Notes under the pieces: generated by a model
What the model was told of the DNA's origin: nothing
The model's database searches: none
Seen by the model: the letters and a program-made list of their open reading frames with translations, nothing else
Part shown: positions 28,686 through 53,440 of the stretch, piece after piece
Position numbering within the stretch: position 1 is the stretch's first letter
Layout of the letters: every line of letters starts with the position of its first letter
Program-made: the position numbers and the translations under genes
Assembly (NCBI GenBank): GCA_944328495.1
Contig: CALVHR010000008.1
Location: 2,385-66,384 of the forward strand
Direction of reading: 5' to 3'
Length of the DNA stretch: 64,000 nt
DNA from: an uncultured Clostridia bacterium
GTDB taxonomy: Bacteria > Bacillota > Clostridia > Christensenellales > Borkfalkiaceae

Positions 28686-28686
28686 T

Positions 28687-29241: not shown

Positions 29242-29259
29242 ACAAAGCGGAGGAAAAAG

Positions 29260-30579
29260 ATGAAGGGAAAACTCAAAGACTACATATATCGACCCGAATA
29301 CGAATGCCTTTCGCGTTCGGAGATGGAAAATTTACAGAGCGAGCGGCTGAAAAAGACAGTCAAATACGTCTATGAAAATTGTAAACCGTATCGAGCGAAG
29401 ATGGATGAATTCAAGATCAAGCCCTCGGACATCAAGAGCGTATCCGATCTTTGCAAATTGCCGTTTACAGTCAAGCACGACCTGCGCGCGGCGTACCCGT
29501 TCGGATTCTATTCGGCGCCTTCGAGCGAGATCGTGGAAGTGCACGCATCCAGCGGCACAACGGGCAAGCTCACGGTCGTCGGATATACACAAAATGATAT
29601 TGACGTATGGGCGGAAGTTGCGGCGCGTTCCCTTGCGATGGCAGGCGTGACCAAAGATTCGCTCGTGCACGTCGCATACGGTTACGGTCTGTTTACGGGC
29701 GGCTTGGGTGCGCATTACGGTGCACAGAAGATCGGTGCGAGCACCGTTCCGGCAAGCGCAGGCAACACCATCCGCCAACTCACCCTGTTGCGCGATTTCG
29801 GTGCGACGCATTTGTGTTGTACCCCTTCGTATGCGATTTTTCTCGGCACCGAGATCCAGAAAGCGGGCATGGATATTAAAGATTTCAATCTTATGGGCGG
29901 GGCGTTCGGCGCGGAGCCTTGGACGTATCCGATGCGCGAAGAGTTGGAGCGTCTTTTGAATATCGATGCGCTGGATATTTACGGGCTTTCGGAGATCAGC
30001 GGTCCGGGCGTTGCGATGGAATGCATGCAGAAAAACGGGAGCCATGTGCAGGAAGACCATTTCATTCCCGAGATCATCGATCCCGAAACGCTGGAACCTC
30101 TGCCCTTCGGGAGCGAAGGCGAACTTGTATTCACGACGATCACCAAGACGGGCCAGCCGCTCATTCGTTACCGTACGCGCGACTTGTGCACGCTGACGGG
30201 CGGAAAGTGCGCCTGCGGCAGAACAACGGTCAAAATGAGCAAGGTCAAAGGCCGTTCGGACGATATGTTGATCATACGCGGAGTGAACGTGTTCCCGTCG
30301 CAGATCGAGGCGGCGATCATGAATGTTTCGGGCGTTTCGCCGCATTATATGATCTATGTTGACCGGATCAATAATCTCGATGTGATGGAGATCGATATCG
30401 AGCTTGCGGGCAATATGACGCCCGATCGCGTTTCGGATATCGAATCGATCAAGAAGAAGGTGGAAACGGAAGTCAATTCGTACATTGGGCTGAGCGCAAA
30501 GATCAAACTCTGCGAGAGCGGATCTATTCAGCGCAGTGAAGGCAAAGCGGTACGCGTGATCGACCGCCGCGATAAATAA
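29260..30579 (+). CDS. phenylacetate-CoA ligase family paralog 2
   Basis: SSGTTGKL, GYGLFTGG and IRGVNVFPSQIE. Clearly diverged from paralog 1. Confidence 0.9.
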   Translation: MKGKLKDYIYRPEYECLSRSEMENLQSERLKKTVKYVYENCKPYRAKMDEFKIKPSDIKSVSDLCKLPFTVKHDLRAAYPFGFYSAPSSEIVEVHASSGTTGKLTVVGYTQNDIDVWAEVAARSLAMAGVTKDSLVHVAYGYGLFTGGLGAHYGAQKIGASTVPASAGNTIRQLTLLRDFGATHLCCTPSYAIFLGTEIQKAGMDIKDFNLMGGAFGAEPWTYPMREELERLLNIDALDIYGLSEISGPGVAMECMQKNGSHVQEDHFIPEIIDPETLEPLPFGSEGELVFTTITKTGQPLIRYRTRDLCTLTGGKCACGRTTVKMSKVKGRSDDMLIIRGVNVFPSQIEAAIMNVSGVSPHYMIYVDRINNLDVMEIDIELAGNMTPDRVSDIESIKKKVETEVNSYIGLSAKIKLCESGSIQRSEGKAVRVIDRRDK

Positions 30580-30601
30580 TCGGGATAAGGAGGAATTGAA
30601 T

Positions 30602-31024
30602 ATGTTGGTGAAACAGCTTTCCGTTTTTATGGAAAACCGTCCGGGCAGACTCTATAAACTGACGCACGCGCTCGGGCAGGAGGGGATCGATTTTGTCACG
30701 CTTTCGATCGCGGACACCAAAGATTTCGGCATCGTGCGTTTTATCGCGCGCGACAACGAAAAAGCGTACGAGATCTTGAAAAATGCGGGCTTTACCGTCG
30801 GGATCACCGAGCTGATCGGCGTGGAAGTGGGCGATCGTCCCAACGCGCTTGCAGAAGTGGTTGCATTGATGGAAGAAGCGAATATGAACATCGAATATCT
30901 GTATTCATTTGTTCTGACCAATCACAATACGGCAAAGATCCTGATGCGTGTGGAAGATACCGATCGCGCAGTACAACTGCTTGAATCCAAGGGGATCAAG
31001 CTTCTTTCCGAAAAAATTCTGTAA
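30602..31024 (+). CDS. ACT domain-containing protein
   Basis: AGGAGG lies 7 nt before the ATG at 30602. Two ACT-like halves (VFMENRPGRL..., VEVGDRPNALAEV...). Confidence 0.8.
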   Translation: MLVKQLSVFMENRPGRLYKLTHALGQEGIDFVTLSIADTKDFGIVRFIARDNEKAYEILKNAGFTVGITELIGVEVGDRPNALAEVVALMEEANMNIEYLYSFVLTNHNTAKILMRVEDTDRAVQLLESKGIKLLSEKIL

Positions 31025-31028
31025 TCAT

Positions 31029-31073
31029 AAAAAAGCGCCCCCGCATCCGAGTAGGATGCGGGGGCGCTTTTTC
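31029..31073. terminator. bidirectional terminator between ACT gene and antiporter gene
   Basis: 18-bp stem AAAAGCGCCCCCGCATCC / GGATGCGGGGGCGCTTTT with A and T runs on either side. Confidence 0.85.
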
Positions 31074-31080
31074 TCCGTGA

Positions 31081-32403
31081 TTATTGTGCTGAAGGAACGG
31101 ATTGTCCTAAAACGTTATCGGCATTTTGTGTACAATCGTCCTGCGCTTTTGAAAGAGCTCCTTCACTGCCGCTCGGCGTAAGCGGCAGAGCCTTATCGTT
31201 TTTGAAAAGAAGCTTTAAAAGAATAGGACAGAGAAGGGAGGAAATTACGACGAGCATAATTACGGGCACGACGGGATCGATCATTGTACCGGCGAAAAGT
31301 CCGCCTTCGATGCCCTTGTTGCAGACGACGAGTGCGACTTCGCCGCGGGCGATCATGCCGCATCCGATCTGCGCCGATTCTTTCCAGGAATGTTTATACA
31401 GTTTCGCCACGGCTCCGCAGCCGATGATTTTTCCGGCAATGCCTGCCAGGACAAAACATACGCCGAACAGCAGAAGCATGGGGGAAAAGCCTTCGAAGCT
31501 TGCGCCGATGCCGATGTTGGCGAAGAAAACGGGGGAGAAGATCATGTAAGAATTGATGTCGACTTTGCGGTCTATGTAATGGGTATCGCGCAGGGAAGAG
31601 AGCACAATGCCGGCGGCATAAGCACCCGTAATGTCGGCGATGCCGAACCATGCTTCGGCGGCATAGGCGTAGACGAAGCAGACGACCAGGCTGAGGATCG
31701 GAATACGGCGGGTATGGTCATATTTTTCGGAAAGATATTTAAACAATTTTTTGATAAAATACCCGACGGCGACAGATGCGGCAAAGAAAGCGACGGTCAT
31801 GAGGATCGTGATCCACGGATTTGCGGAAGGGTCTTTGAATCCGATCACGATGGACAATACGACGATACCGATGACGTCGTCGATGATGGCAGCGGAGAGT
31901 ATAACCGTACCGACTTTGCCGTTGAGTTTTCCCATTTCTTTCAGAGTTTCGACGGTAATACCGACGCTTGTGGCGGTCAGGATAACTCCGACAAAGATCG
32001 CATCGAGCAGGATGGAAGAATCCGAGAGAGCGGAAAATCCGCCGAGGAAGGGCACGGCGATGAGGAAGCCGAGCACCATTGGCACGATCACCCCGCCGAG
32101 CGCAATGAGTGTTGCGGGAAGGCCGGAGCGTTTGAGCTCTTTGGTATCCGTTTCCAATCCTGCGGAAAACAAGATGAGCACTACGCCGATCTCGGCGATT
32201 CCGTCGAGGAATTGACTTTCTGTTTCCGTGGGTGCAATCGGGGACCACCAGCCGAATTGGCCCCAGATGGCGGGGCCGATCAGAAGTCCTGCGATCACGG
32301 CGCCGACCACCTGCGGCAGACCGAGCTTGCGCATGAGCATTCCCAAAAGTTTTGTTGCGAGCAGGATGATAGCCAAATCCCAGAAAATTTTTGTAATGTC
32401 CAT
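31081..32403 (-). CDS. cation:proton antiporter (CPA2, Na+/H+ exchanger family)
   Basis: AAAGGAG RBS before Met MDITK. About 12 TM segments with GxxLGP-type N-terminal helices. Confidence 0.85.
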   Translation of the reverse strand: MDITKIFWDLAIILLATKLLGMLMRKLGLPQVVGAVIAGLLIGPAIWGQFGWWSPIAPTETESQFLDGIAEIGVVLILFSAGLETDTKELKRSGLPATLIALGGVIVPMVLGFLIAVPFLGGFSALSDSSILLDAIFVGVILTATSVGITVETLKEMGKLNGKVGTVILSAAIIDDVIGIVVLSIVIGFKDPSANPWITILMTVAFFAASVAVGYFIKKLFKYLSEKYDHTRRIPILSLVVCFVYAYAAEAWFGIADITGAYAAGIVLSSLRDTHYIDRKVDINSYMIFSPVFFANIGIGASFEGFSPMLLLFGVCFVLAGIAGKIIGCGAVAKLYKHSWKESAQIGCGMIARGEVALVVCNKGIEGGLFAGTMIDPVVPVIMLVVISSLLCPILLKLLFKNDKALPLTPSGSEGALSKAQDDCTQNADNVLGQSVPSAQ

Positions 32404-32573
32404 GATTTCTCCTTTTTCAGCCATGAGCAATAATAAACTTTTTTAAAGGAAAAGTCAATAAAATCGTGAAGGAGGTGCGAATTTTTGGGGAAATATTGAC
32501 GCAAAGTTTAAAAAGTAGTATAATGATAGAGACGTCGTAAATACGGCAGACAAAGGCATAGGGGCATACGATT

Positions 32574-33890
32574 ATGTGGTTTGACGAAAGTACGTTTTAT
32601 CAAATTTACCCGCTCGGATATTGCAAGGCGGAACGTGAAAACGATTTTGGAGAGGTGCGGCATCGGCTGCAGTGTATTGAGGATGACATACCGCGCATTC
32701 GAGATCTCGGATTTCGGGCAGTTTTGTTGAATCCTCTGTTTGAGAGCGAGAGACACGGCTATGATACCGTAGATTTTTTCCGGGTGGACCGTCGGCTGGG
32801 CGACAACGGCGATCTTAAGCGTTTGGTTGAAAAATTTCACGAAGCGGGGATCAAGGTCGTTTTGGACGGCGTATTCAATCATGTCGGGAGAAAATTTGCC
32901 GCGTTTGAGGAAGTAAAGAGATACAGGGAAAATTCGGATAAAAAAGATTGGTTTTATATAAATTTCGGCGGCAACAGTCCGTATAATGACGGCTTTTGGT
33001 ATGAAGGCTGGGAAGGTCATATGGAGCTTGTCAAGCTCAATCTGCAGTGCGGGGGAGTAACCGATTACATTCGCCGTGCGGTTGAGTTCTGGATAGACGA
33101 ATTCGGGATCGACGGATTGCGGCTGGACGTGGCATATCTTCTTCCCGAGTGGTTTTTTGAATTTTTGCGCCGCATTGGACGGGCAAAGCGTCTGGACTTT
33201 TTCCTGATGGGGGAAGTCATTCATATACAGAATTTTGCGAAGAATATTTCGTCCGAGCGGCTGGATTCGGTGACGGACTATGAATGTTACAAGGGCTTGA
33301 CGTCTGCGCTCAATTCGGACAATTTTTTTGAGATCGCGCATTCGTTGGAGCGATTGTTCGGGGTGCAGCAATGGTGCCTTTACACAGGAAAAAATCTTTT
33401 CAATTTTGCGGACAATCACGACGTTTCCCGCGCGTTTACAGCGCTCAAAGACAAGAGGAAGCTTTCCGCGCTGTACGCGGTGCTGTACACGATGCCGGGC
33501 ATTCCGTGCGTATATTATGGGTCGGAATACGGTGCAGAGGGAGATAAGTCGCAGGGAGACGATGCGCTCCGTCCTGCGTTTGACGCCATAGACAAAAACA
33601 AAAACGGCGAACTTTGTGCGCTGATCGGAAAATTAAATGCGATACGGTGCAGGGAAAAAGCGCTTGCCTATGGCAATTTTGAGCGTTGCGTGTTGAATAA
33701 TAAATACATGTGTTTCCGCCGCGAAAAGGATGGGGATCGCATCTATTGCGCGTTCAATATTTCGGAAGGCGACGTGACTGTGCGGGTGGAAGAAGCGGAG
33801 GGGACCGACCTTCTCAGCGGCGAAGTGCGCAACCTCAACGATATTTACCTGCCGCCCTTTGCCGTAAAAATCTTTAAAAAGAACGGATAA
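32574..33890 (+). CDS. cytoplasmic GH13 alpha-amylase-family glycosidase
   Basis: GH13 regions I-IV: VVLDGVFNHVG, GLRLDVAYLL, FFLMGEVIH and FADNHDVSR. No signal peptide. TTGACG-17-TATAAT promoter upstream. Confidence 0.85.
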   Translation: MWFDESTFYQIYPLGYCKAERENDFGEVRHRLQCIEDDIPRIRDLGFRAVLLNPLFESERHGYDTVDFFRVDRRLGDNGDLKRLVEKFHEAGIKVVLDGVFNHVGRKFAAFEEVKRYRENSDKKDWFYINFGGNSPYNDGFWYEGWEGHMELVKLNLQCGGVTDYIRRAVEFWIDEFGIDGLRLDVAYLLPEWFFEFLRRIGRAKRLDFFLMGEVIHIQNFAKNISSERLDSVTDYECYKGLTSALNSDNFFEIAHSLERLFGVQQWCLYTGKNLFNFADNHDVSRAFTALKDKRKLSALYAVLYTMPGIPCVYYGSEYGAEGDKSQGDDALRPAFDAIDKNKNGELCALIGKLNAIRCREKALAYGNFERCVLNNKYMCFRREKDGDRIYCAFNISEGDVTVRVEEAEGTDLLSGEVRNLNDIYLPPFAVKIFKKNG

Positions 33891-36088: not shown

Positions 36089-37741
36089 ATGGAAGCGATA
36101 CTGTACATAGGAATATTGCTTGCGTATTTTGCGGTAATGATCTTGATCGGGGTTCGAAACAGCCGCAGTTCGAAGTCGGTGCAGGGTTTTGTGCTGGGCG
36201 GAAGGTCGGTGGGGCCTTGGCTTACGGCCTTTGCGTACGGGACCTCATATTTTTCGGCGGTTATTTTCATCGGGTATGCAGGGCAATTCGGCTGGAATTT
36301 CGGGATCGCGGCGACGTGGATCGGGATCGGGAATGCTTTGATCGGGTCGCTTCTTGCCTGGGCGGTGCTCGGCAGGCGTACGCGGGTGATGACGCAGCAA
36401 CTGGATTCGGCGACCATGCCCGATTATTTCGGGAAGCGTTTCGGCGACGGAAAATTGAAAATTGCGGCGTCGGTAATTATTTTTATTTTTCTTATACCGT
36501 ATACGGCCTCGTTGTATAAGGGATTGGGGAGTCTGTTTGCGATGGCTTTCAGCATTCCGTACTGGGTATGTATCCTGATCATGGCTGCGGTGACGGCTGT
36601 ATACGTACTGGTCGGCGGATATATGGCGACGGTTTGGAATGATTTCATTCAGGGCTTGATCATGCTGTTCGGGATCGTGGTCATCGTTGCGGCGGTGCTT
36701 ATGAGCAAGGGCGGACTGACCGATGCGATCGCGCAGCTTTCGCAGGTATCGTCGGGAGATTTGAACGGCGCGTATGTATCTTTTTTCGGACCCGATCTGT
36801 ACGGACTGATCATGGTTGTGATACTGACCAGCCTGGGCACGTGGGGCCTGCCGCAGATGGTGCAGAAATTTTATTCGATCAAGAGCGAGAGCTCAGTCAA
36901 GACGGGCATGATCGTGAGCACCGTTTTTGCGCTTGTTGTGGCGGGAGGGTGTTATTTTCTCGGTGGATTCGGCAGATTGTTTGTAACGGGATCGTCGCCT
37001 GCTTTTGATACGATTGTCCCGACAATGCTCCGCGAAAGCCTCCCCGCAGTGCTGATCGCGCTTGTGTTGATTTTGGTGGTTTCGGCATCCATGAGCACAC
37101 TTTCTTCACTGGTCATGAGTTCGAGTTCGACGATCACGCTCGATTTGATCCGCGGGGTAAAAAAGGATTTGGGACATCAGAGCCAGATGGTGCTGATCCG
37201 CGTGTTTGTGGCGGCGTTCATCGTGATCAGTGCGGTGATTGCGATTTTGTACGAAGAATTTCAGCTCGCGTTCATCGCGCAGATGATGGGGGTAAGCTGG
37301 GGCGCGCTCGCCGGGGCATTTCTTGCGCCCTATCTGTACAGCCTGTACTGGAAGCGTACCAGCAGAGCTGCCTGCTGGACCTGTTTCGTGTTCGGAGTGG
37401 CGATGAGCCTTGCGGCGCTTGTGATCTCGCTGAGCAAATCTTCTCTTCCGCAGTCTTTTATTGATTCTTTCTTGTATAAATATCTGTTTGGTTCATCCAT
37501 CTATGTCGGGTCGTGGACGATGCTGATCGGATTGGCGATCGTGCCTGTCGTGTCCCTGTTTACGAAGAAACCGGATCAGAGCCGATTGGGAGAATTGTTC
37601 CGTCCGTTCGGGCAACTGAACGAAGCGGTGGAAACGGCGGTGGAAGGGTATCTGACCAAACAACCGTCGGTCAGCTTGAAAAAAGAACAAACTGCGTCTG
37701 GCGCCGAAGAGGAGTTTGAGGCGGTCGGAGAGGAAAAATAA
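36089..37741 (+). CDS. sodium:solute symporter family transporter
   Basis: 550 aa, about 13 TM, SSF pattern (GGRSVGPWLTAFAYGTSYFSAVIFIGYAG). Hydrophilic C-terminal tail. Confidence 0.9.
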   Translation: MEAILYIGILLAYFAVMILIGVRNSRSSKSVQGFVLGGRSVGPWLTAFAYGTSYFSAVIFIGYAGQFGWNFGIAATWIGIGNALIGSLLAWAVLGRRTRVMTQQLDSATMPDYFGKRFGDGKLKIAASVIIFIFLIPYTASLYKGLGSLFAMAFSIPYWVCILIMAAVTAVYVLVGGYMATVWNDFIQGLIMLFGIVVIVAAVLMSKGGLTDAIAQLSQVSSGDLNGAYVSFFGPDLYGLIMVVILTSLGTWGLPQMVQKFYSIKSESSVKTGMIVSTVFALVVAGGCYFLGGFGRLFVTGSSPAFDTIVPTMLRESLPAVLIALVLILVVSASMSTLSSLVMSSSSTITLDLIRGVKKDLGHQSQMVLIRVFVAAFIVISAVIAILYEEFQLAFIAQMMGVSWGALAGAFLAPYLYSLYWKRTSRAACWTCFVFGVAMSLAALVISLSKSSLPQSFIDSFLYKYLFGSSIYVGSWTMLIGLAIVPVVSLFTKKPDQSRLGELFRPFGQLNEAVETAVEGYLTKQPSVSLKKEQTASGAEEEFEAVGEEK

Positions 37742-37762
37742 GTAAACACATTGCATTTATAT

Positions 37763-37806
37763 GCGGCGGCGCCGCCTCGTTTGCGAGGCGGCGCCGCCGC
37801 ATTTTA
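37763..37806 (+). terminator. symporter terminator
   Basis: 17-bp stem GCGGCGGCGCCGCCTCG / CGAGGCGGCGCCGCCGC followed by ATTTT. Confidence 0.85.
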
Positions 37807-37865
37807 TCGGCAAATAATCGGCAAAAAGCTGTTGTAATGTTTTGTCATATTTTTTTGTGATTTGT

Positions 37866-37919
37866 TTGACAATTCTTATAAAATTTATTATAATGATCGT
37901 GTCATAAAAAGGTATGACA
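37866..37919 (+). promoter_or_regulatory. perfect consensus promoter plus inverted repeat in front of the giant lipoprotein gene
   Basis: TTGACA (37866-37871), 17-nt spacer, TATAAT (37889-37894). Inverted repeat TGTCATA-N6-TATGACA at 37900-37919. Confidence 0.7.
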
Positions 37920-37936
37920 ATGAGAGAGTAAGGGAC

Positions 37937-40900
37937 ATGAGCGGTAAGAAAAGATTTTTCAAAAAGAAAAAGTTCTTGATATGCTCTTTAATTTGCTTGA
38001 TAACCATCGTTCTGGGAGCGACGGTCTTTTTTGCGTGCAGCGGCGGATCGGGTGAAAAGATCACCGTGTCCAAAGTCAGCCAAAGCATATGCATGACGCC
38101 TCCGGAAGACGGTTCGTCGCCCGAGGATTACGGGAATCTCGATAATATTGCATATATCGTGGGGCGTTTGACGCAGCGCAGTTTTTACCATACCGATTCC
38201 GAGTCGCATGTGACTACGGCGGGGATGGAGCAGTTTGTGGAAGGGGGCAAAGACTATAAGGACGGAGTCACGCTTGCGACTTCGCTGTGCTGGAGCAAGG
38301 GGACACTGAGCTCGTTTGCGCCCGATCCTGTGGCGATGCAAAAATTTTTCGGGGAAGATAAGGCAGTCATACGTACGGCAGTTTCTTCCGATCCCGATGA
38401 TTGGAACGGCATGCAAACGGAGTGGAAAACGGGCGATCCCGATCAAATTCTCGGCACGGACGAATATGTCAATTATTACGGGATGTGGGGGACGGAATTC
38501 AGCGATTATGTGATCAACGAAAAGACCTGTCTGTCGTTTACCGATCTGCAAAAGAGCGGGGACACGTACTCGTTCACGATTGAGCTGGAACCCAACGAAT
38601 CGACAAAATACTATAAGATTCAGATGAAGACGATGGGCGGGCTCGACGATTATCCCGATTTTTCGTCTGTACTGATGACGGTAGAATTTACGTCGGACTG
38701 GACGATCACCAAGCTTTCGGTCGAAGAGAAATACAACACGAAAAAAGTGATTTCGGTCAGTTGTGAAGGCACGACGGTCATCGAATTTAACTATGCGGAA
38801 GAGAGCGTGGACGTATCCGCATATGAAAATTATTTTGTAAAATATGCAAACGCGGCGTCTACGGGCATTGCGGAAAAAGAGCCGACGGCGATCGACTATC
38901 TTACGCAGGGCGTATTGCCGGCAATCAGCGGCGGTACGCCGTTGGCGGTCCGTGCGGATATCGGCGGGAACGTGGTATCGGGCAGGATCGCATTGGAACT
39001 GGGGGATTTGTCGGGACTTTTGAGCGGATCGGGCGATCTTTCGGGGATTGCGGACGATCTGTTGAGCGGGCTTGTCCTGCGGGCGGAACTCGGATCTCTG
39101 CAAGTGCTTTTGCAACAGGGGACGATGTACGCGCAGTATAAAGATTTTCTGGGCAAGATCGCGGTTTCAGATGTTTTGGGACTGGTCGGGGACGTAACTT
39201 TCTCATTGGACATGTCCGCATTGCAGACGGCGATTGCGGACAGCACGATACTCAAAAGCGGAAGCGAGACGTTGTTGCTGTGCGCTTTGCCCTTGGGCGG
39301 GCAGGAGATTTCTCTTGAATTCGGATTCAAACAGACGGACGGTCTGATATCCTTCGAATACATAACGGCAGACCTGAATATAGCGGGCACGGATGCCGCG
39401 ATACGGGTCGCGCCCTCGAAATCGAATGAGGGCTTTGCGCAGATCGATACTTCTGCGGCAGTGGATCTGAAGCCGTACATTGACGGAGTGCTCGGTATCC
39501 TTGCGGGCGGTTCGTTTGACGTGCAGATTGCGTACGGCGAGGAAACATCGCCTGTACGGGCGGAAGGCAATATTGCCGTATCCGTTCAGCCGTTTGCGGC
39601 GAGCGGCGAGCTGGCACTGACGTTGCAGCCTTCGCTTTTTGGTAGTGACGGCGAAGCGCTGATTCTTCCCGTATCGTTTGCGATCACGGGCGAAGACGTT
39701 TACCTGCGTGCGGGCAACATTGCCGTTGTGACGTCTGTGAGCGATCTCAAAGAGGGGCTTTCTTCCGTACTCGGTCTGTTCGGTGCGGCAATGCCTTCAC
39801 TAGATTTTGGCGGGACGGACGTTGCGGCGATCTTGGCGGGCGTGATCGGCATGGATTTCGATGCGCTGATCCGTTCGCTCACGCTGACCGAGCAGTCGCT
39901 CGGGCTGATTGTGGACGGCGACATTCTTGTCGATGCATTGGCTCCGCTGATCGGAGAAACGGATTTTGAGCTCGGCGAGATCGTGGCGGAATATGATGCC
40001 GCATCGGGGGTGTTTGCGCTCGAAGCGATGGGCGCGTCCGTGTTGCTTTCCGGCAGGACGGAGGCGGTCCCGATGCCCGATGCGGACGAATACGTGGCGT
40101 TTGATCTTGCGCAGGCGGCTTCGGAAGCAATTGCGGCAGTGCAGAGCATTCAAAACGGCGAAACGGGATTTGCATTTACGCTGAATGTAGCGGGCGAGAC
40201 GCTGGAAGCGGATGCCGTATTGGAAATGCGGGAAGGCAAGTTTGTGCGTTTGCAGGCGCAGCTCGGCGACTTGTCTGCAATGTTTCAGGACGGGGCTGTA
40301 TATGTAAGCTATAAAGGCATGCTCGGTAAGCTTGCGGCAAGCGATGTTGCGGGTATGTTCTCTTCGGATAACGGAATCTCGTTGGATATTGCCGCATTGG
40401 CAGGCTCTCTGCTCGCTTCGCGCCTGGAAAAAGACGGGGATCAGTATACGCTGCGCGCAGCGCTCGCTTTCGGGGAAGCGGAGATCCCGGTCGAATTTGT
40501 CTTTGCACAGACAAAAACGCGTACGTCGTTGGAATATGTGCGCGTTCGCGCCGAGTTGTTCGGCATGGAAGCGGATGCAAAACTCTCCTTTGATCAAACG
40601 GTGACGCTGCCCGCCTTTGACACGAACGGCGCGGTCGATCTGATGCCGTATATTGAAAGCATTCGCGGGCTGATCGAAGGCGGACGTTACAAACTTGATT
40701 TGAATTATACGGCAGAGCAGTTTGCCGTCAAGGGAACTGTCGTTCTCGATGCGGCGGACGGACTCAAAGCAGAGGGGAACATCACTCTTACTTTGGGAGC
40801 GTATTCCCTGCCTATACAGTTTGTTCTGGTCGGTGAAAATATTTATCTGAAAGTGTTCGACATAAAAATCGGCGGGACGCTTTCGGAAGTGGGCAGTATG

Positions 40901-43468
40901 CTTGGCGAACTGTTGCCGCAGGAGGCAACCGAAGTTCTGCCCGCATTGGATGCGTTGGATGTTTCTGAAATCATACGCTCGCTCCTGTCCGCAGATATTT
41001 CGGCGGCGATCAAGGAACTGCGTCTTACGGACGAATCGATATCTCTCACGGCGGACTGCGATGCGATCCTGGCGGCTTTGCAGGGACTGTTTGGCGGAAC
41101 GGAACTGCGCGCGGGTGAACTGAAAGCAGAATATACATTGGCAGAAGGCGCTCTCGCGTTGGAGATCGGGGGGGCAAAACTGCGGTTTACATCCGGCAAC
41201 GCGAGTGTTTCGGCGCCCGTCGATGCGGCGCAATACATGCCTTTTGAATCGGTTGCGGCATTCATCGATCCCATTCGCGCACTTGCAGGATCGGACGGCA
41301 TATCGTTCTTGTTGGAAGGCAGCACTTCTGTCGAGGGCATTGCGCTGTCAGTCGAGCTGGCGGGCGAAGTGTGGTTTGCAGACGGTTTGCAGATACGGCT
41401 GGATTTTGCGGTAAATGGTGCAAATGTAGTTGTATGGTACTGTGACGGAGCAATCACTTTTTCGTATGGCGGTTATGGAATGACGGTTGCGGAGAGCGAG
41501 CTTTCCACGGTCATCAAAAAGTTCTCTTCGCTGTTTGCGTCGGGAGCGGCGGAACAAGACGTTTCGGTGCAGTCCGTATTGGCGTTGCTGGGCGCAGACG
41601 GGTTCGATCTCGTGAAATTTATTCAGAACGTGCGCGTATCGGTTACCGAAGGCGGGTCTCTCGCTATCGCGTTGGATCTTGCGAAGGTATTGGGCGATTC
41701 GTTTTCCGCGTTCGAATGTGAAATTGCGGCTCTTGAAAAGGGAGTGAGCCTTTCGGGCAAAGAATTTACTCTTTACGGCGTAACGCTGCGCGACATATAT
41801 GCCGAGGTTTCGTCGGCACAAGAAGCGATTGTTCCCGATTTTGGCGGCGTCATTATGTGTGAGAACATTTTTGAGTTCATTCTCAATGCATACACGCAAT
41901 TGGCGCAGACAGATTATCTTGCTTTATCCTTCGATTATACGGCGGCGGATCTGGCTGTCGAACTGGATGGGAAAGTGCAATTCGAGGGGAGCGAAGGGGC
42001 AGCGCAGAGAACGCTCAACCTTGATTTTACAGCGGTCATTTCGACATTTGCTTCGGATGCGCAGGGGAATGTGACGGTTTCGGGTTCACATTATCTGCAT
42101 TTGATCATACTGCGCGAAACGCTTTATATGACCTATTCCGTCAAAGCTTTGGATGCGGACACGGCGCTTCGCATCACGATGCCTGTGAAGGAGTTGTTCG
42201 CGGCAGGCGAAACGGTCTTGCCGATTTTGGCGCCGCTTTTGGGTATTCCGGAAGATGTCTATTATTTTGAGTTTGTAAATGCAATTCTCGGCAAAGGGTA
42301 CAGCACGATCAACAGCGGTATTTTCGGCGTAATGGATACGGAAAGTTGGTGCGACCTGATTCTCGGCATTGTCGATGAATATACGGTGAAGGGCGAATCG
42401 GACGATCAGGCAGCGGAGAGTTCTGCTTCCGGTATTTCGTTTGAGGTTGTCAGTTCCGAGAACGGCGATGTTTCCGTCATCTTGAGCGGGATCGCTGCCG
42501 GAGCGGGAAGTGCAAATGCCATTCTGACAGCGAAGCAAGACGAAGCGGCGATTGAAGCGCCCGCGGGATCGTTTATCGATGTTTCGACGATCGCGCAGCT
42601 GTTGCAGGATGTTCTGTACGCATACAATTATAAGGATACAGGTTATCATCTGACCGATTCCGTCAAGATCGAAGTTGCAAAAATCGAGCTTGATCTCAAA
42701 GTAGAAATCGATCTTCGAGTGGGAGTCAATGAAGACGGTTCCATCGATATTGCCCTGCGCCTGACGACGCCGCAATATTATAATATTCTTGGCGGTTTAA
42801 TGGGAAGTTCGGTCATTATCAACGGCAATACTGTAACAGATATTTCTATTTCAAACGGTTTTGTAAGCATGTCGCGCACGCAGACGACATATTACGACAA
42901 CAGCAGTTTCTGGATCTGGAAGCACGGTTTCTACGATCTGAGCACGCCGTATGTCGATTATCGTGCAATGACGCTGGACGCGTTCTTTGCGGATATTATG
43001 AATCAGATGTTCTTTGCGATCAATCTCAGCGACAAAATGCAGAATTTTATCCGTGAGCAGGCAGGAATAGAGGACCCGAACGATGAGCAGCAAACGAACG
43101 CTGCAGTGTACGATGCGGGTGAAATGGTGAAATCGTATTCTGCGGATGAAGGCGGGTATCATATCACGCTGGATTTGGGCGCTGTTGCGGGCATAGACGA
43201 ATTTGACGATGCCGTGCTGAATATTTACCGTACGCAGAACGGAGATCATTATGATTTGACTTCTTTGGACGGATCGGTCACGGTAGTCGGTATCGTTACG
43301 CTCAAACTCTCTCTGACGCACCGCGATCCGGGAACGGATGCGCAAGCGCAGGAATATTGTATGGCAAACGTGCAGACGGTCGCGTCGGCATTCGGGTATG
43401 CGGACGCGTCGGCGCTATATGCGGCAGCCGGTGCAAGCAATTCGTATCTGAGCAAAAGCAATCATTGA
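37937..43468 (+). CDS. giant (1,843 aa) putative lipoprotein built of ~390-aa tandem modules; function unknown
   Basis: Signal peptide MSGKKRFFKKKKFLICSLICLITIVLGATVFFAC-SGG. One uninterrupted ORF with internal repeats (see findings). Own promoter and terminator. Confidence 0.85.
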   Translation: MSGKKRFFKKKKFLICSLICLITIVLGATVFFACSGGSGEKITVSKVSQSICMTPPEDGSSPEDYGNLDNIAYIVGRLTQRSFYHTDSESHVTTAGMEQFVEGGKDYKDGVTLATSLCWSKGTLSSFAPDPVAMQKFFGEDKAVIRTAVSSDPDDWNGMQTEWKTGDPDQILGTDEYVNYYGMWGTEFSDYVINEKTCLSFTDLQKSGDTYSFTIELEPNESTKYYKIQMKTMGGLDDYPDFSSVLMTVEFTSDWTITKLSVEEKYNTKKVISVSCEGTTVIEFNYAEESVDVSAYENYFVKYANAASTGIAEKEPTAIDYLTQGVLPAISGGTPLAVRADIGGNVVSGRIALELGDLSGLLSGSGDLSGIADDLLSGLVLRAELGSLQVLLQQGTMYAQYKDFLGKIAVSDVLGLVGDVTFSLDMSALQTAIADSTILKSGSETLLLCALPLGGQEISLEFGFKQTDGLISFEYITADLNIAGTDAAIRVAPSKSNEGFAQIDTSAAVDLKPYIDGVLGILAGGSFDVQIAYGEETSPVRAEGNIAVSVQPFAASGELALTLQPSLFGSDGEALILPVSFAITGEDVYLRAGNIAVVTSVSDLKEGLSSVLGLFGAAMPSLDFGGTDVAAILAGVIGMDFDALIRSLTLTEQSLGLIVDGDILVDALAPLIGETDFELGEIVAEYDAASGVFALEAMGASVLLSGRTEAVPMPDADEYVAFDLAQAASEAIAAVQSIQNGETGFAFTLNVAGETLEADAVLEMREGKFVRLQAQLGDLSAMFQDGAVYVSYKGMLGKLAASDVAGMFSSDNGISLDIAALAGSLLASRLEKDGDQYTLRAALAFGEAEIPVEFVFAQTKTRTSLEYVRVRAELFGMEADAKLSFDQTVTLPAFDTNGAVDLMPYIESIRGLIEGGRYKLDLNYTAEQFAVKGTVVLDAADGLKAEGNITLTLGAYSLPIQFVLVGENIYLKVFDIKIGGTLSEVGSMLGELLPQEATEVLPALDALDVSEIIRSLLSADISAAIKELRLTDESISLTADCDAILAALQGLFGGTELRAGELKAEYTLAEGALALEIGGAKLRFTSGNASVSAPVDAAQYMPFESVAAFIDPIRALAGSDGISFLLEGSTSVEGIALSVELAGEVWFADGLQIRLDFAVNGANVVVWYCDGAITFSYGGYGMTVAESELSTVIKKFSSLFASGAAEQDVSVQSVLALLGADGFDLVKFIQNVRVSVTEGGSLAIALDLAKVLGDSFSAFECEIAALEKGVSLSGKEFTLYGVTLRDIYAEVSSAQEAIVPDFGGVIMCENIFEFILNAYTQLAQTDYLALSFDYTAADLAVELDGKVQFEGSEGAAQRTLNLDFTAVISTFASDAQGNVTVSGSHYLHLIILRETLYMTYSVKALDADTALRITMPVKELFAAGETVLPILAPLLGIPEDVYYFEFVNAILGKGYSTINSGIFGVMDTESWCDLILGIVDEYTVKGESDDQAAESSASGISFEVVSSENGDVSVILSGIAAGAGSANAILTAKQDEAAIEAPAGSFIDVSTIAQLLQDVLYAYNYKDTGYHLTDSVKIEVAKIELDLKVEIDLRVGVNEDGSIDIALRLTTPQYYNILGGLMGSSVIINGNTVTDISISNGFVSMSRTQTTYYDNSSFWIWKHGFYDLSTPYVDYRAMTLDAFFADIMNQMFFAINLSDKMQNFIREQAGIEDPNDEQQTNAAVYDAGEMVKSYSADEGGYHITLDLGAVAGIDEFDDAVLNIYRTQNGDHYDLTSLDGSVTVVGIVTLKLSLTHRDPGTDAQAQEYCMANVQTVASAFGYADASALYAAAGASNSYLSKSNH

Positions 43469-43474
43469 TCGAAG

Positions 43475-43503
43475 CGGGCATCGGAAATATCCGATGCCCG
43501 TTC
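43475..43503 (+). terminator. hairpin after giant gene
   Basis: CGGGCATCGGA / TCCGATGCCCG stem. Only a weak T tract follows. Confidence 0.5.
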
Positions 43504-43547: not shown

Positions 43548-43868
43548 TTTACAAACAATCTGTTTTGTGTTAAAATGAAATTCAATCAAGTGATTAAAAC
43601 GCAAGGATGCGGAACAGTAATCCGAATTGCAGGTTCAGAGAACCGCCGGTAGGTGCAAGGCGGCCGAAGCGATCGGGTGAACTCGCCGCGGAGCGGTCCG
43701 TTCGAAAGGGAACGAGTAGAGGCGGAACGGGGGCTCGCCGTTAAAAGGGCGGAATATGCGCCGCAAGGCAAGTATTTACAGAGAGCGCGCGATCAAGCGC
43801 GAAAAAGAGTGGTACCGCGGAACCCGTTTTCGTCTCTTTACGAGTCGGAAACGGGTATTTTTTATTTT
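43548..43868 (+). promoter_or_regulatory. T-box leader (Leu specifier CUC) with its promoter, controlling leuA
   Basis: TTTACA-17-TAAAAT promoter with extended TG. AGAGA motif at 43637. Specifier context GAA-CUC-G with CUC at 43682-43684. T-box sequence AGAGTGGTACCGCGG (43806-43820). Terminator ACCCGTTT/AAACGGGT followed by a T-run (43822-43867). Confidence 0.85.
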
Positions 43869-43881
43869 GGGAGGCAGAGCA

Positions 43882-45543
43882 ATGAAAAATTATCAGAAAT
43901 ACAAAAAGCAGTATTTTATGCCGCCGGTGCGGTGCATGGACTGGGCGGAAAAAGATGCCGTCGAACGCGCGCCGATATGGTGCAGTGTCGATCTTCGCGA
44001 CGGCAACCAGGCGCTTATCGAACCGATGACTCTGGAACAAAAAGTAGAATTTTTCAAACTCCTGCTGAAAATCGGATTCAAGGAGATCGAAGTCGGATTT
44101 CCCGCGGCGAGCGATACGGAATATACGTTTCTCCGTACGCTCATTGAAAACGATCTTATTCCGGATGACGTGACGATCCAAGTTCTGACACAGGCGCGCG
44201 AGCATATTATTCGCAAGACATTTGAAGCGATCAAAGGCGCAAAGAATGTCATTGTGCACGTTTACAATTCCACTTCGGTCGCTCAGCGTGAGCAAGTATT
44301 CAAAAAAGACAAAGCCGAGATCAAAAAGATCGCAGTAGACGGCGCAAAGCTTTTGAAGCAGCTTACGGAAGAAGCGGGCGAGAAATATCGTTTCGAGTAT
44401 AGCCCCGAATCGTTTACGGGGACAGAGCCGGAATACGCGCTGGAAGTCTGCAACGCAGTTTTGGAAGTGTGGAAACCGACGGCGGATCGCAAGGCGATCA
44501 TTAATTTGCCTGCAACGGTAGAAAATGCAATGCCGCATGTGTTTGCCCAACAGATCGAATATCTTTCCAAAAATCTTGTATACCGCGACAATGTAGTGGT
44601 CAGTTTGCATCCGCACAACGACCGCGGCTGTGCGGTGGCGGCGACGGAGATGGGGCTTTTGGCAGGAGCTGACCGCGTAGAGGGCACGCTGTTCGGGAAC
44701 GGAGAGCGTACGGGCAATGCGGATATAGTGTCCGTCGCCATGAATATGTATTCGCAAGGGGTCGATCCGCAGCTGGATTTTTCGTTCATGCCCGAGATTT
44801 GCGAAAAATATACAGAATACACGCAGATGCGTGTATCGCCGCGTCAGCCGTATGCCGGATCGCTGGTGTTTGCGGCGTTTTCAGGCAGTCATCAGGACGC
44901 GATCGCCAAGGGAATGCAGTGGCGGCGCGACGGAAAATCTTCGTACTGGGATGTACCCTATCTGCCGATCGATCCGCAGGATGTCGGCAGGGAATACCAG
45001 ACGGACGTCATCCGTATTAACAGTCAATCGGGCAAGGGCGGCGTCGGATTTATATTGCAGGAAAATTATGGCATCGATCTTCCTCCCAAATTCAAAGAAG
45101 CAATGGGGTATGCCGCGAAGGGTGTCTCCGATCGTACGCATAAAGAGCTCAAACCCGCCGAAGTTTTCCGCGTTTTCCTGGATACGTTTGTAGAAAACCG
45201 TCCCGTTTTTGCGGTGCCCGAATGTCACTTCAAACAGATCAAAGACGGGATCGAAGCGACGGTCACGGTGGAAAAAGACGGTGAGCGCAGGGAAGTCAAG
45301 GCAGAAGGCAACGGCCGTCTCGATGCGGTGACCAATGCTCTGAAAGAGTTTTTTGAAATTGCTTTTACGCTGACGACGTATGAACAGCGCGCGCTGAGCG
45401 AAAAATCCGATTCGCAGGCACTCTCTTTTGTCGGACTGGAAAAGGACGGAAAATCCTATTGGGGTGCAGGTGTGGATGAGGACATCATACAGTCTTCGAT
45501 CAACGCGCTCGTGTCTGCGCTGAACAACTATCTTTGCAAATAA
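43882..45543 (+). CDS. leuA: 2-isopropylmalate synthase (long LeuA type)
   Basis: GGGAGG RBS. DLRDGNQA and HPHNDRG motifs, plus a C-terminal LeuA dimerisation/regulatory domain. Confidence 0.9.
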   Translation: MKNYQKYKKQYFMPPVRCMDWAEKDAVERAPIWCSVDLRDGNQALIEPMTLEQKVEFFKLLLKIGFKEIEVGFPAASDTEYTFLRTLIENDLIPDDVTIQVLTQAREHIIRKTFEAIKGAKNVIVHVYNSTSVAQREQVFKKDKAEIKKIAVDGAKLLKQLTEEAGEKYRFEYSPESFTGTEPEYALEVCNAVLEVWKPTADRKAIINLPATVENAMPHVFAQQIEYLSKNLVYRDNVVVSLHPHNDRGCAVAATEMGLLAGADRVEGTLFGNGERTGNADIVSVAMNMYSQGVDPQLDFSFMPEICEKYTEYTQMRVSPRQPYAGSLVFAAFSGSHQDAIAKGMQWRRDGKSSYWDVPYLPIDPQDVGREYQTDVIRINSQSGKGGVGFILQENYGIDLPPKFKEAMGYAAKGVSDRTHKELKPAEVFRVFLDTFVENRPVFAVPECHFKQIKDGIEATVTVEKDGERREVKAEGNGRLDAVTNALKEFFEIAFTLTTYEQRALSEKSDSQALSFVGLEKDGKSYWGAGVDEDIIQSSINALVSALNNYLCK

Positions 45544-45823: not shown

Positions 45824-46077
45824 TTGTAAGGAAGGAGAAAATGTGTTATAATACTCAAAACTTCAACAAAAGATAAGTTTGTATTCTGCAAAATACAAGA
45901 TTGTATCATGATCTTCGGCGGCGGAGGGGCAGACGGATTCAGTTTTACGATCGACGATTTTATGTTGGAAGAGATCGCGTAAAAAGTAAGGCGGACTGTT
46001 TTCAAAATATTGCCGCCGATACCCTCAAAGCGAGATAACAGGAGAGGCACAGCAAATTGCTGTGCCTCAATTTTTTA
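45824..46077 (+). ncRNA. orphan promoter-to-terminator unit (~215 nt), candidate sRNA or leader
   Basis: TTGTAA (45824-45829), 17-nt spacer, TGtTATAAT (45844-45852). Strong terminator GAGGCACAGCA/TGCTGTGCCTC plus T6 (46044-46077). The only ORFs inside are 11 and 24 codons. Confidence 0.35.
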
Positions 46078-46082
46078 TATCA

Positions 46083-48300
46083 ATGCGGTATTTTCTTGAC
46101 GAAAATAAAATAATTCGCTACAATTACGATCGTTGCCGAGATGATAAGCAGAACAGTATTACGGAATTGTATTTTGCATCGCCGCAGGCGACGGACATCA
46201 AGGATATTACCGTATGCGAGATCGATATGGGGCCGGACGGCAGTCTGAATTTCAAAAAGAATAATTCGAACGGCAGCTGGGACAACTTTGCGACGACCAA
46301 TGACATAATGGCGCAGCTCGGTACGCAGAAGAACGGCGTAGTCGGCGAATTTGTTCCCGAGGGGCAGCAGCGTGCGACCGAATATACGATGGAGCTGTTT
46401 ATCCCTTGGGGGTATGTGGACAAGATCGCCGGGGAAGGTACGGCAGACGTGATCAAAAACGGCGGAGAGATCTATTTGAACGCTACGCCGATCACATCGT
46501 ACAACTATCTCGGAACGGATGGCGACGTCGACCGTTGGTGGTGGATGATCGGTTCGCAACTGGACGACGGTTCTTGGGGCAACACGCGCGGCTGGTATCA
46601 TTTCAATAAAGACGGTTTGGTTGCATACGATATCGAAATCGAAATGACGGGCGACGGGGTTGTGATGGAGCGGATGAATTATGATTTTGCGGTAGCGAAC
46701 AATTCGGTCACGTTCCTGACGCATCCCGCAGACGGGTGTGCTCTTACCGAAATCACGGTCAACGGCAAGTCCTATTCCGATTCTGTGGCGTTCGTAGGCG
46801 ACGGGTATTTTGTCGTGCCGGCGAGCGAAGTGACGCAAGATCTGAAAGTGGTTGCCGTATTTGAAACGTACGATCCGTCGCCGCAGGATTTTGAGGCGAC
46901 CGTTACGGCGTTGTATTACGGCACGTCGCTGAACCTGGATGGGGCGCAGTTGCTTTTGGACGGCACGAATGATTACACGCTGGATATTTCGGGCGGAAAA
47001 GTCGTCGGCGAGATCCCTTACGGCACGTATACCGTTTCGCTGGTCGGAGATGATTTTACCAATTATGACAGCATTCAGTATATTTTCCGCAGTGAGCAGG
47101 CGGCCGATTTCCAATTCAGCTATAATATGTTTACTGCCAACATGATTTACGGGAAAGGCGGCGAAGTTGACAATTCCCACTCGAACGACGCGCAGAATGC
47201 GTATGTAAGCAACATATCGGCGGGGCAGATGTGGGCAGTCATGACGGACGAAACGACGGACGGCGCCTTCACCGTGAACGTACAGAACTCGGATTCGCTC
47301 AACAACGGCAACATATATATTGCATATATTTTGGATCAGACCAAAATCGTGGTATTCCAGGTGCGCCTGGAGGAAGGTGAATTCTTTGTGCAGTGGCGCA
47401 TCTGGCTGAGCGATTTCGGAATCAATGACAGCAATATTCTCAGCCCGAACGATTGGACGAGCGCATCGCTCCCCGCGTTTACGGACGCGTATAAAGGCGA
47501 CGGTGTGGACGTCACGCTGGTGCGCGAAGGCTCGGCGTTCTATGTGTTTGCATCCGAACACGGCAAGCCCGACACAGCGAAACTCGCATTGCAATATACC
47601 GTATCCGCAGGCTATGCGGAAACTTTGGGCAACTGGGCTTTCGGCGGTTCCGATATAACGGCGAACGCGAAGTTTGAATTTGAGGCAGGCATACACGGCA
47701 TTCACCGCAAATCTGATTTTCGGCAATGACAGCGGACCGATCGATATCAGCAAAGCAAACGATACGAGCGGCTCGGTCAAGAATCTGGAAGAAGGCAGGA
47801 TGTGGGCGGTCAAAAATGATACGAACGGCAGTTCTGTCTTTACGGTAACGGTGCAGAAATCCGACATCAATGAAAACCTGTTGCTTGCGTTTATCATTGA
47901 CGGGAAAGTTGTTGTACTGCAGGTCAAGACGAGCAATAGCGGAAATTTCTATGCAGAGTGGCGCGACTGGATGGCAGATTTAGGCGTAGACTATATAATC
48001 AGCCCCACGGGCTGGCCGGCAGGGACGGAGAGCGCCGCATTGAATGATGCGTTCAATGGCAGCGGCGTAGATGTTACCGTTGTTCGCGACGGATCGGATT
48101 TTTACGTGTTTGCAAGTGAAAAAGGGAAGCCCGAAACGGCAATTTTGTGTCTTGAATGTTCGATCAGCGGCGATTATGCAGCGACGGAAGGTCATTGGGT
48201 GATCGGAAGCCACAATGCATCTGCGGGAGCGGAGTTCGAATATTCGCTGACCGATGATGCGGATACGATCGCGTCCTGGGCCACGAAAGCAAACGCATAA
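46083..48300 (+). pseudogene. 5'-truncated and frameshifted surface-protein gene (CBM9/DOMON-like fragment plus duplicated ~200-aa C-terminal module)
   Basis: No signal peptide or RBS, and the ATG sits 5 nt after a terminator T-run. The frame switches 0 to +1 near 47682-47692, where module 2 continues in ORF 47674-48300. Confidence 0.6.
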
Positions 48301-48487: not shown

Positions 48488-49450
48488 GTGCTTGCGGCAC
48501 TCTTGTTTGTTATTTGTGCCCTGAGCGCGTGCGGAGGGGAAGAAGAACCTGATCATGTGCACTCTCTTGTGCATGTAGCCGCGAAGGAAGCGCTCTGTGA
48601 ACGGGAAGGGAATATCGAATATTGGACTTGCGAGGCGTGCGGCAAATATTTTTCGGATGCGGAAGGCGTGACCGAGATCGGTTTGGAAGATACGGTGTTG
48701 CCGTATCGGCATAAATTGGAGTATGTCGAGGCAAAAGCGGCAGAGGACATGTTCTCCTGTGATGCGATCGCGCATTATGAGTGTTCCGTCTGCGGCAAGT
48801 TGTTTGCGGACGAAGCCGGGCAGCAGCCGATGGAAGAAGATGACGTTTATTCATTAAAGTCATTTACGCTTACGGAAGCAACAGTTGCGGCAGAAAATTC
48901 CACGTCTCGAATTTATGCGAGCGTCGACGAAGAAAATTACGATCTTGCGGTGACGGAGTCTACATATGTTTTGCGTGTATTTGTCGGCTGGAGCGGCGAC
49001 GTGCAGAGCGTTGTGGAAAACAGCAACAGCGACGTGTTTCGCTTGAATATCAACATCGATACGCAAGCGAATATCGAGGCAGGGAAAGGGGGATCGTTTC
49101 GCGTGGGGTATGATAAACTCGGCCTGTATGCCCATTTCAGCGACAGTACGCAGCTTATATACATGTCGTCGGTGACAGGCGGCGAGAAAATTACGCAGGC
49201 GTTTGAAAAGAACAACGGCGTATATGTCGTGCTTGTGCGCAACGGGCGCTGGATGACGGCATATATGGAAGACGAGGCGGGAACGCTTTATCAGATTTCA
49301 CTGACCACATTTTTTACGAAAAGCGTCATGGTCAAGGCGACGCTGGGAGTCAACAGCGGATATTATGTTACGGAAGATTGTGCGGCGGTTGCGCGCAACG
49401 GGAAACTTGTGATCGGAACGACCGATCCTGCGGTTGCAAGAGCAGCATGA
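48488..49450 (+). CDS. lipoprotein with two CxxC repeats; N-terminal signal peptide interrupted by an in-frame TAG
   Basis: Lipobox LSAC-GG. GGAGG (48442-48446) lies 8 nt before the ATG at 48455, then GTA, then TAG (48461-48463), then KKKLRFLT in frame with the GTG at 48488. Confidence 0.6.
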   Translation: MLAALLFVICALSACGGEEEPDHVHSLVHVAAKEALCEREGNIEYWTCEACGKYFSDAEGVTEIGLEDTVLPYRHKLEYVEAKAAEDMFSCDAIAHYECSVCGKLFADEAGQQPMEEDDVYSLKSFTLTEATVAAENSTSRIYASVDEENYDLAVTESTYVLRVFVGWSGDVQSVVENSNSDVFRLNINIDTQANIEAGKGGSFRVGYDKLGLYAHFSDSTQLIYMSSVTGGEKITQAFEKNNGVYVVLVRNGRWMTAYMEDEAGTLYQISLTTFFTKSVMVKATLGVNSGYYVTEDCAAVARNGKLVIGTTDPAVARAA

Positions 49451-53376: not shown

Positions 53377-53440
53377 ATGTGCGTTGGTTTATTGCCGAAC
53401 GCAGAATGGTAATGCGGAGAAAAATCAGAAGGAGGATCTG

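Follow-up and report, generated by a model that had tools for sequence, protein, structure and literature searches.

The largest gene in the 64,000-nt stretch of DNA analysed here (hereafter the window; uncultured Clostridia bacterium, GenBank assembly GCA_944328495.1, contig CALVHR010000008.1, positions 2,385 to 66,384) lies at 37937..43468 on the + strand and encodes a protein of 1,843 aa that, to judge from profile comparisons, is a member of an undescribed family whose three domains are all unannotated: an N-domain, a repeat unit of ~190 aa and a C-domain. We tentatively read this protein, with confidence that stops a little short of even, as a membrane-tethered surface stalk or fibril in which the repeats act as spacers. 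We favour this reading because the repeat array varies ~15-fold in length across the family, near-identical members differ by single modules and relatives carry surface-type repeats at their distal end, and because a single N-terminal anchor is combined with the very acidic, secreted-type composition of the protein (net charge −149, a single hydrophobic segment). A preliminary description of this DNA, made from the sequence alone, had already suggested an elongated envelope structure such as a fibre or scaffold, an idea that fits the array range, the gain or loss of one module and the Flg_new tails described below.

Repeat anatomy, selection and family architecture

The preliminary description had reported tandem modules of ~390 aa with a period of about 1,173 nt, and the repeats themselves were borne out. 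In segment-wise BLASTP, aa 381–794 aligned with aa 772–1179, the offset staying at 391 aa (1,173 nt) throughout and the identity at 30–38 %, with E-values down to 4e-26, and the repeat peptides quoted earlier were found where they had been placed; a self-BLAST of the whole protein returned the identity match only. Module 1 (aa 381–771, 39077..40249) and module 2 (aa 772–1162, 40250..41422) are 32–34 % identical, a codon-level alignment giving 34 % amino acid and 46 % nucleotide identity. Further degenerate copies, also suspected earlier, proved to be real at the profile level: with the family alignment, region 1163–1500 matched the module alignment (hhalign probability 98 %, E = 2e-13) and residues 1514–1612 matched the module tail (hhalign probability 85–91 %), so that together they make up a third module, which is degenerate and contains an insertion (aa 1163 to ~1612, 41423..42772). 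What required correction was the size of the repeated element. Within the 391-aa module, one half is homologous to the other (hhalign probability 86 %, E = 5e-6), and the element repeated in giant relatives is ~183 aa long, corresponding to positions ~125–318 of the module profile; the building block is therefore ~190 aa long, each module is a double of it and the window protein contains six.

Ahead of the array lies the N-terminal anchor (aa 1–34, 37937..38038), in which seven Lys/Arg precede ~20 hydrophobic residues ending in FFAC (Cys34). This is followed by a conserved, membrane-proximal N-domain (aa 36–340, 38042..38956; ~290 aa in length), which has 27 invariant residues across 30 species and a predicted alpha/beta fold with a predicted local distance difference test (pLDDT) value of ~90; comparison of the N-domain with the module profile revealed no similarity. 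A Gly/Ser/Leu-rich linker (aa 341–380, 38957..39076), predicted with low confidence, leads to module 1. The protein closes with a C-domain of ~230 aa (aa ~1613–1843, 42773..43465), which is kept across the family, including the giants, and has no known homologue.

In order to gauge constraint, the ratio of non-synonymous to synonymous substitution rates (dN/dS) was calculated with respect to an orthologue of 74 % identity in a metagenome-assembled genome (MAG) of the human gut, which gave values of 0.12 overall, 0.035 for the N-domain and 0.11–0.16 for the modules and C-terminal regions, all of them qualitative as dS is close to saturation. As judged from these substitution patterns, the gene is under purifying selection in every region. 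Orthologues with 43 % and 38 % identity own both modules, each of which is closer to its positional counterpart; thus, the duplication that produced modules 1 and 2 predates the divergence of these proteins, in keeping with the earlier view of an old duplication that has been maintained. Conservation beyond this strain, to which the preliminary description had attached weight, was evident from the gene order alpha-amylase, (MatE), SSF, 1,843-aa gene, leuA, which is kept in relatives of only 31–43 % identity, as well as from the presence of relatives in many gut Clostridia MAGs; even a relative at 28 % identity still adjoins leuA. Further upstream, a block coding for a POR/TPP oxidoreductase, an AMP-binding ligase and an alpha-amylase (26967–33890, +) is syntenic with the loci of distant relatives (L038, L040 and L042), and the whole region therefore represents a conserved chromosomal backbone in the lineage. 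The neighbours were also considered as operon partners, an idea that was rejected as their conservation does not extend beyond individual lineages: SSF and leuA accompany the gene in one and an ATP-binding cassette (ABC) transporter in another. In a different sub-lineage, the same four genes (TM1266-like, a gene of ~337 aa without a Pfam match, a BPD_transp_1 permease and an ABC ATPase) precede two giant homologues, P0059 (2,964 aa, L043 3029–14895) and P0069 (5,345 aa, L047 3061–22038), which could reflect either lineage synteny or a functional link to the ABC transporter.

A first search returned 62 unnamed relatives, and a profile search of 1.84 billion representatives identified 1,387 clusters (50 % identity) at E ≤ 1e-3 and 513 at E ≤ 1e-30, the longest family member measuring 6,215 aa. 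All taxon-labelled genome matches were gut MAGs of Clostridia (Candidatus Borkfalkia, Candidatus Coproplasma and uncultured Clostridia/Clostridiales), and our search of the literature found no description of the family. Its architecture is constant, consisting of an N-terminal hydrophobic helix, the N-domain, the repeat array, the C-domain and usually an extra tail. For the 145 proteins with both terminal domains, the distance between these domains ranges from 277 to 4,107 aa (0 to 19 recognised units), and in 110 of them the chain continues for >300 aa past the C-domain. In these distal tails, the only Pfam domain found reproducibly, and in many relatives, is Flg_new (Listeria-Bacteroides repeat), a repeat typical of surface proteins; a Pfam scan found no such repeat (PF09479 / PF18998) in the window protein. 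At one locus (L045 3149–10243), a distinct Flg_new gene (425 aa) and then leuA come after a relative of 1,213 aa (P0058), which looks as if the distal tail were made as a protein of its own or the gene had been split. Elsewhere in the window, a separate protein of 1,007 aa (53384–56407, +) contains Divergent InlB B-repeat (Flg_new_2) domains (E = 1.3e-25) and, given that this repeat class also occurs in the relatives' tails, may be another surface protein of the organism.

Copy number also differs between very close relatives. In three pairs of proteins with 98.5–98.8 % identity, the difference amounts to exactly one module (396, 389 and 416 aa); in one such pair, P0009 and P0018, the extra copy of P0009 is 90 % identical to the copy adjoining it. 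Moreover, the giant relative P0066 contains six consecutive 183-aa units with a mutual identity of 92–98 %. With old repeats in the window protein and near-identical units elsewhere, the family therefore shows both ancient repeats and very recent expansions. The N-domain, in turn, is also found on its own, in lipoproteins of ~300 aa with canonical lipoboxes (LPGC and LFGC) that are encoded in unrelated genomic contexts (L048 8001–8924, P0217, LPALPGC; L049 8001–8903, P0219, LLFGC), a distribution that points to a functional domain in its own right.

Membrane tether, predicted folds and alternative readings

Tethering to the membrane via the N-terminus is robust, as a hydrophobic helix is present at this end in 199 of 199 relatives with an N-domain. 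The preliminary description had gone further and called the protein a lipoprotein; the tether holds, whilst the nature of the anchor is less clear-cut. In the window motif, GATVFFAC34-SGG, Ala at −1 fits the lipobox consensus used ([LVI][ASTVI][GAS]C ending a short signal peptide), but Phe at −2 and −3 is atypical, and the hydrophobic run of ~20 residues before Cys34 has the length of a transmembrane helix. Close relatives retain the Cys ([FLT][FAST][AS]C); family-wide it is not conserved, a Cys box being found with a relaxed pattern in 97 of the 199 relatives and absent from the other 102. Furthermore, 59 of the 199 have >40 residues, and up to 161, before the helix, too many for a cleaved signal peptide and indicative of a signal anchor. 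As such, lipidation of Cys34 in the window protein is possible, and its anchor may act as a lipoprotein signal peptide or, uncleaved, as a signal anchor. No other means of attachment was detected: an LPXT[GAS]-like motif occurs within the last 60 residues of one of 200 family proteins and no LPXTG-like motif in the window protein, none of the 200 has a hydrophobic C-terminal tail, and Pfam and NCBIfam scans of the whole protein found no wall-binding domain (SLH, CWB2, LysM, SH3b and others). These results agree with the earlier statement that no adhesin, S-layer, LPXTG or wall-binding motif is recognisable. Readings of the protein as an S-layer, sortase-anchored, Ig-like/Big or SLH protein were rejected, there being no profile match and the secondary structure being rich in helices; a polymorphic toxin was likewise rejected, as the C-terminal domain is conserved.

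Under the stalk model, the N-terminus would hold the protein at the outer face of the cytoplasmic membrane, through either an acylated Cys34 or an uncleaved signal-anchor helix, and the N-domain would form a membrane-proximal base. The flexible Gly/Ser/Leu linker would connect this base to a rod of six helix-plus-beta-meander units of ~190 aa, arranged as three double-unit modules of 391 aa of which the third is degenerate, and the C-domain would cap the rod. The repeat array would thereby serve as a length-setting spacer that lifts the C-terminal end off the membrane and through the wall to the surface, and in most relatives the extra tail with its Flg_new repeats would be displayed away from the membrane. 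At the surface, this end may serve attachment or help to organise the cell surface of gut Christensenellales-type Clostridia. The extended geometry of the rod, its exposure at the surface and an adhesive or structural role are what we infer from the anatomy and variation described above.

Several observations weigh against this model. The most conserved part of the protein is the membrane-proximal N-domain, so that its key activity could reside at the membrane, and the predicted fold matches (see below) point to lipid-binding half-barrels. The window protein has no distal tail, ending 13 aa past the C-domain, and its gene belongs to the syntenic core and not to a variable island, an unusual setting for an adhesin. 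Finally, the one-module differences could stem in part from repeat collapse during metagenome assembly, although such collapse cannot explain the wide range of array lengths among distant members.

Searches for known domains returned nothing above threshold in Pfam or NCBIfam for the whole protein. When 26 modules, 30 N-domains and 23 C-domains were each compared with Pfam at E ≤ 10, nothing significant was found and no family was recurrent; searches of all PDB sequences (phmmer and profile hmmsearch) with the whole protein, module, N-domain and C-domain likewise gave nothing significant, and the module profile had no scored match in a word-indexed protein search. Amongst the sub-threshold matches were LppX_LprAFG (PF07161) in module 2 (22.2 bits, E = 1.4e-4, cut-off 24), which was matched by 2 of the 26 modules, T2SSN in one module (15.7 bits vs a cut-off of 29.6, E = 0.016), the sole match to the AsmA clan, and LmeA in one C-domain (E = 0.0099). 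Pfam matches in the giant relatives (GldD_lipo, PPDK_N, Wzc_N, MG4 and others) were rejected as spurious, with zero individually significant stretches; the whole-protein E-values in P0064 and P0066 (GldD_lipo 3.7e-13, PPDK_N 7.7e-17) are weak scores summed over repeats, and the T2SSN match of P0066 also has no individually significant stretch.

AlphaFold2 models were generated for aa 36–1175 (46-sequence alignment; mean pLDDT 71.8, predicted template modelling score (pTM) 0.40, with the N-domain at ~90 and the modules at 60–80) and for aa 1140–1843 (mean pLDDT 77.9, pTM 0.72). These suggest that the C-terminal 704 aa adopt a defined arrangement and that the N-domain is flexibly joined to the array. 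In both models, blocks of one to four helices are followed by long antiparallel strands, amounting to ~10 strands and 3–4 helices per 190 aa. Foldseek comparison of both with the PDB found no global match, and that of the C-terminal model with the viral BFVD nothing significant. The queries were whole multi-domain models, and the matches that did emerge are local: Csa4A 4EGD (probability 1.0, E = 3.4e-3, template modelling (TM) score on target 0.40, root mean square deviation 7.8 A, 217 columns), the ApoB100 beta-barrel (probability 0.97), LprG 3MH9 (probability 0.91, TM-score on target 0.30) and LolB 8CM1 (probability 0.89, TM-score on target 0.45), with RseB (weak), BPI, OrfX2, AttH, LptD and pericyclases lower in the lists. 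Structure prediction and comparison, which the preliminary description had proposed, thus gave no confident match to a characterised family. Its statement that the protein has no recognisable domain is true of the sequence, but at the level of predicted fold there is a faint likeness to LolA/LprG/Csa half-barrels. The theme of half-barrels and hydrophobic ligands is coherent although each item is weak, and suggests resemblance rather than membership.

This theme underlies an alternative that we regard as unlikely, in which the protein would be a relay for lipids or other hydrophobic ligands, its LolA/LprG-like half-barrel units with hydrophobic pockets forming a chain along which lipids, glycolipids, lipoteichoic-acid-like polymers or lipoproteins are passed outward through the wall, by analogy in function with LprG, the Lpt bridge or AsmA-like proteins. 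The four structures listed above with their values are the only local Foldseek matches of high probability, the sub-threshold LppX_LprAFG, T2SSN and LmeA profiles go the same way, an N-terminal anchor followed by a long beta-rich chain is also seen in AsmA-like proteins, and the stand-alone homologues of the N-domain are canonical lipoproteins. However, every profile match remains under its curated cut-off (and LppX_LprAFG is confined to the two modules), the TM-scores are low at 0.30–0.45, and long up-and-down beta-meanders draw such matches non-specifically. A transport bridge would, moreover, be expected to have a fixed length, whereas lengths in this family span a ~15-fold range and a whole module can separate near-identical proteins. 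The hosts are Clostridia treated as Gram-positive-type spore formers (PMC6839795) and so offer no obvious acceptor membrane; in addition, LolA-like folds of Firmicutes can, according to one preprint, serve non-lipid roles, e.g. GerS (bioRxiv 10.1101/2025.01.13.632879). Less probable still, in our view, is the more specific proposal that Gram-positive or atypical envelopes possess in this family an equivalent of the bridge-like systems that transfer lipids or lipoglycans; the number of units could then be tuned to the thickness of the envelope or to a surface layer. A groove-type transfer protein, raised in the preliminary description, is not supported, as no AsmA-clan profile passes, each unit is predicted to contain 3–4 helices and the length of the family is not fixed.

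We judge equally unlikely a reading in which function centres on the N-domain, as a lipoprotein module with a binding or regulatory task at the membrane–wall interface, with the array as an accessory matrix or wall-embedded scaffold that would serve e.g. envelope organisation or cell–cell cohesion and not as a stalk presenting a tip. No other region is nearly as constrained as the N-domain (dN/dS 0.035, 27 invariant residues), which occurs alone in ~300-aa lipoproteins with canonical lipoboxes in unrelated contexts and has no profile similarity to the modules; the absence of a distal tail from the window protein and the core, syntenic position of its gene also agree with such a role. Nevertheless, no catalytic or binding motif was identified, and neither the plastic array length nor the Flg_new tails of most relatives would be explained. 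This reading is, in addition, compatible with the stalk model, the two overlapping rather than excluding each other.

That the open reading frame (ORF) is a decaying gene, a mis-assembly or a chance ORF, as might be argued from the origin of all relatives in metagenomes or MAGs, is effectively refuted by its unbroken 5.5-kb frame, purifying selection in each region, a 99 % identical protein in an independent assembly, hundreds of full-length relatives with the same architecture and a perfect promoter; on this comparative evidence, the gene is real, intact and constrained.

Borkfalkia and other Christensenellales-type Clostridia are uncultured, although they occur widely in the guts of humans and animals. 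Here, a core, syntenic and strongly expressed-looking locus encodes a member of a family of >1,300 sequence clusters that has no Pfam, NCBIfam or PDB representative, and once the N-domain, the ~190-aa unit and the C-domain are defined, thousands of giant proteins now listed as hypothetical would gain an annotation. Should the stalk reading be true, the family would represent a new way to build a surface fibril from an N-terminal membrane tether; lipid-carrying repeats, if true, would make it the first bridge-like carrier outside classical diderms.

Gene borders and neighbouring features

The reading frame is intact over 5.5 kb (stop-to-stop 37862..43468, +). The first in-frame ATG, at 37937, was taken as the start, the protein opening with MSGKKRFF (MSGKKRFFKKKK), a choice of start codon that agrees with the 99 % identical database protein P0001. 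The coding sequence (1,843 aa plus stop) is, as had been noted earlier, the largest in the window, followed by that for the 1,007-aa protein. Upstream, the promoter-like site TTGACA-17-TATAAT (37866..37894, +) matches the sigma-70-type consensus at 12 of 12 positions and so is as perfect as first described. On the minus strand, several long antisense ORFs overlap the gene between 37988 and 43345 (up to 477 aa, e.g. 39800–41233); these are most likely shadow ORFs arising from codon composition and not genes.

The preliminary description had placed the gene as a monocistronic unit between a symporter gene and leuA, and both borders support this. The 5′ neighbour, an SSF symporter gene (36089..37741), is separated from it by its own terminator (37761..37810, +), a 19-bp GC hairpin followed by a T-run (−49.4 kcal/mol, z = −6.9). 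On the 3′ side, leuA (43756..45543) has a separate promoter-like site (43548..43576, TTTACA-17-TAAAAT with a TG extension) and, directly 5′ of it, a T-box leader (43595..43840, +; 116.9 bits); together these mark the 3′ boundary (43548..43840, +) and lie outside the 1,843-aa unit, which is therefore monocistronic, with leuA regulated independently of it. The terminator ascribed to the gene itself stands only in part: a strong 13-bp GC-rich hairpin (43473..43502, +; −24.5 kcal/mol, z = −4.8) begins 5 nt past the stop codon, but it is trailed by GUUCAACC in place of a U-tract, because of which it is missing from the terminator-scan list and was not scored as an intrinsic terminator.

Beyond leuA on its 3′ side, two ORFs at 46062–47729 (+, 555 aa) and 48488–49450 (+, 320 aa) had no Pfam match at E ≤ 1e-5; in a near-identical MAG contig, the region of the former is called as a shorter gene of 277 aa (L001 8305–9138). 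A 6S/SsrS RNA (54.1 bits) was found on the minus strand at 56759–56945, adjoining a tRNA gene (56596–56667, −).

Comparison with known systems

Of the known systems, the AsmA-like/TamB/YhdP proteins share with the window protein an N-terminal membrane anchor, a very long, repetitive and beta-rich extracytoplasmic region without catalytic motifs and a monocistronic giant gene. None of the AsmA-clan profiles (AsmA, AsmA_2, DUF490/TamB, DUF748, T2SSN and others) passes its cut-off, however, and these proteins are absent from the top 50 Foldseek matches. They form a continuous open beta-groove, whereas every unit of the window protein is predicted to contain helices, and they bridge a fixed intermembrane span in diderms, whereas the arrays described here vary from 277 to 4,107 aa in Clostridia hosts that are not classical diderms.

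Closer in predicted fold is the LolA-like superfamily (LolA, LolB, RseB and mycobacterial LprG/LppX; PF07161), with which the units share a size of ~190 aa, a predicted make-up of 3–4 helices and ~10 antiparallel strands, and a lipoprotein or membrane-anchored envelope context. The window protein does not reach the PF07161 gathering score (22.2 vs 24 bits; 2 of 26 modules), known LolA-like members are single-domain whilst the present family forms arrays of 6 to ~19 units, and the host probably has no outer membrane. The best high-probability fold match, Csa4A 4EGD, belongs to the Csa/Lpl family of Staphylococcus aureus, Gram-positive lipoproteins with a curved beta-sheet half-barrel (PMC6593408). 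These tandem lipoproteins (DUF576) are encoded by tandem genes, whereas the window protein has tandem domains; Csa proteins are basic and DNA-binding, whilst the window protein is strongly acidic (−149), and no DUF576 match was found in the whole protein, the 26 modules, the 30 N-domains or the 23 C-domains, even at E ≤ 10. By their predicted structure, the units thus look most like LolA/LprG/Csa half-barrels, although with scores below threshold membership is not demonstrable.

In the Gram-positive repeat-stalk surface proteins (SasG/Aap with G5-E repeats, Rib/alpha-like proteins and Esp), tandem repeats act as spacers. Differences in copy number between near-identical strains, recently homogenised repeats in some members (92–98 %) and, in relatives of the window protein, binding-type distal repeats (Flg_new) are features that the present family has in common with them. 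They differ in being held by a C-terminal LPXTG anchor, where the present family relies on an N-terminal helix or lipid (with an LPXTG-like motif in 1 of 200 proteins), and in being built from all-beta domains of 80–130 aa instead of an alpha/beta unit of 190 aa; also unlike them, the window gene occupies a core syntenic locus and its repeats are old (32–34 % identity). By analogy, and not as a member of this group, the window protein would nonetheless work most like these repeat-stalk surface proteins.

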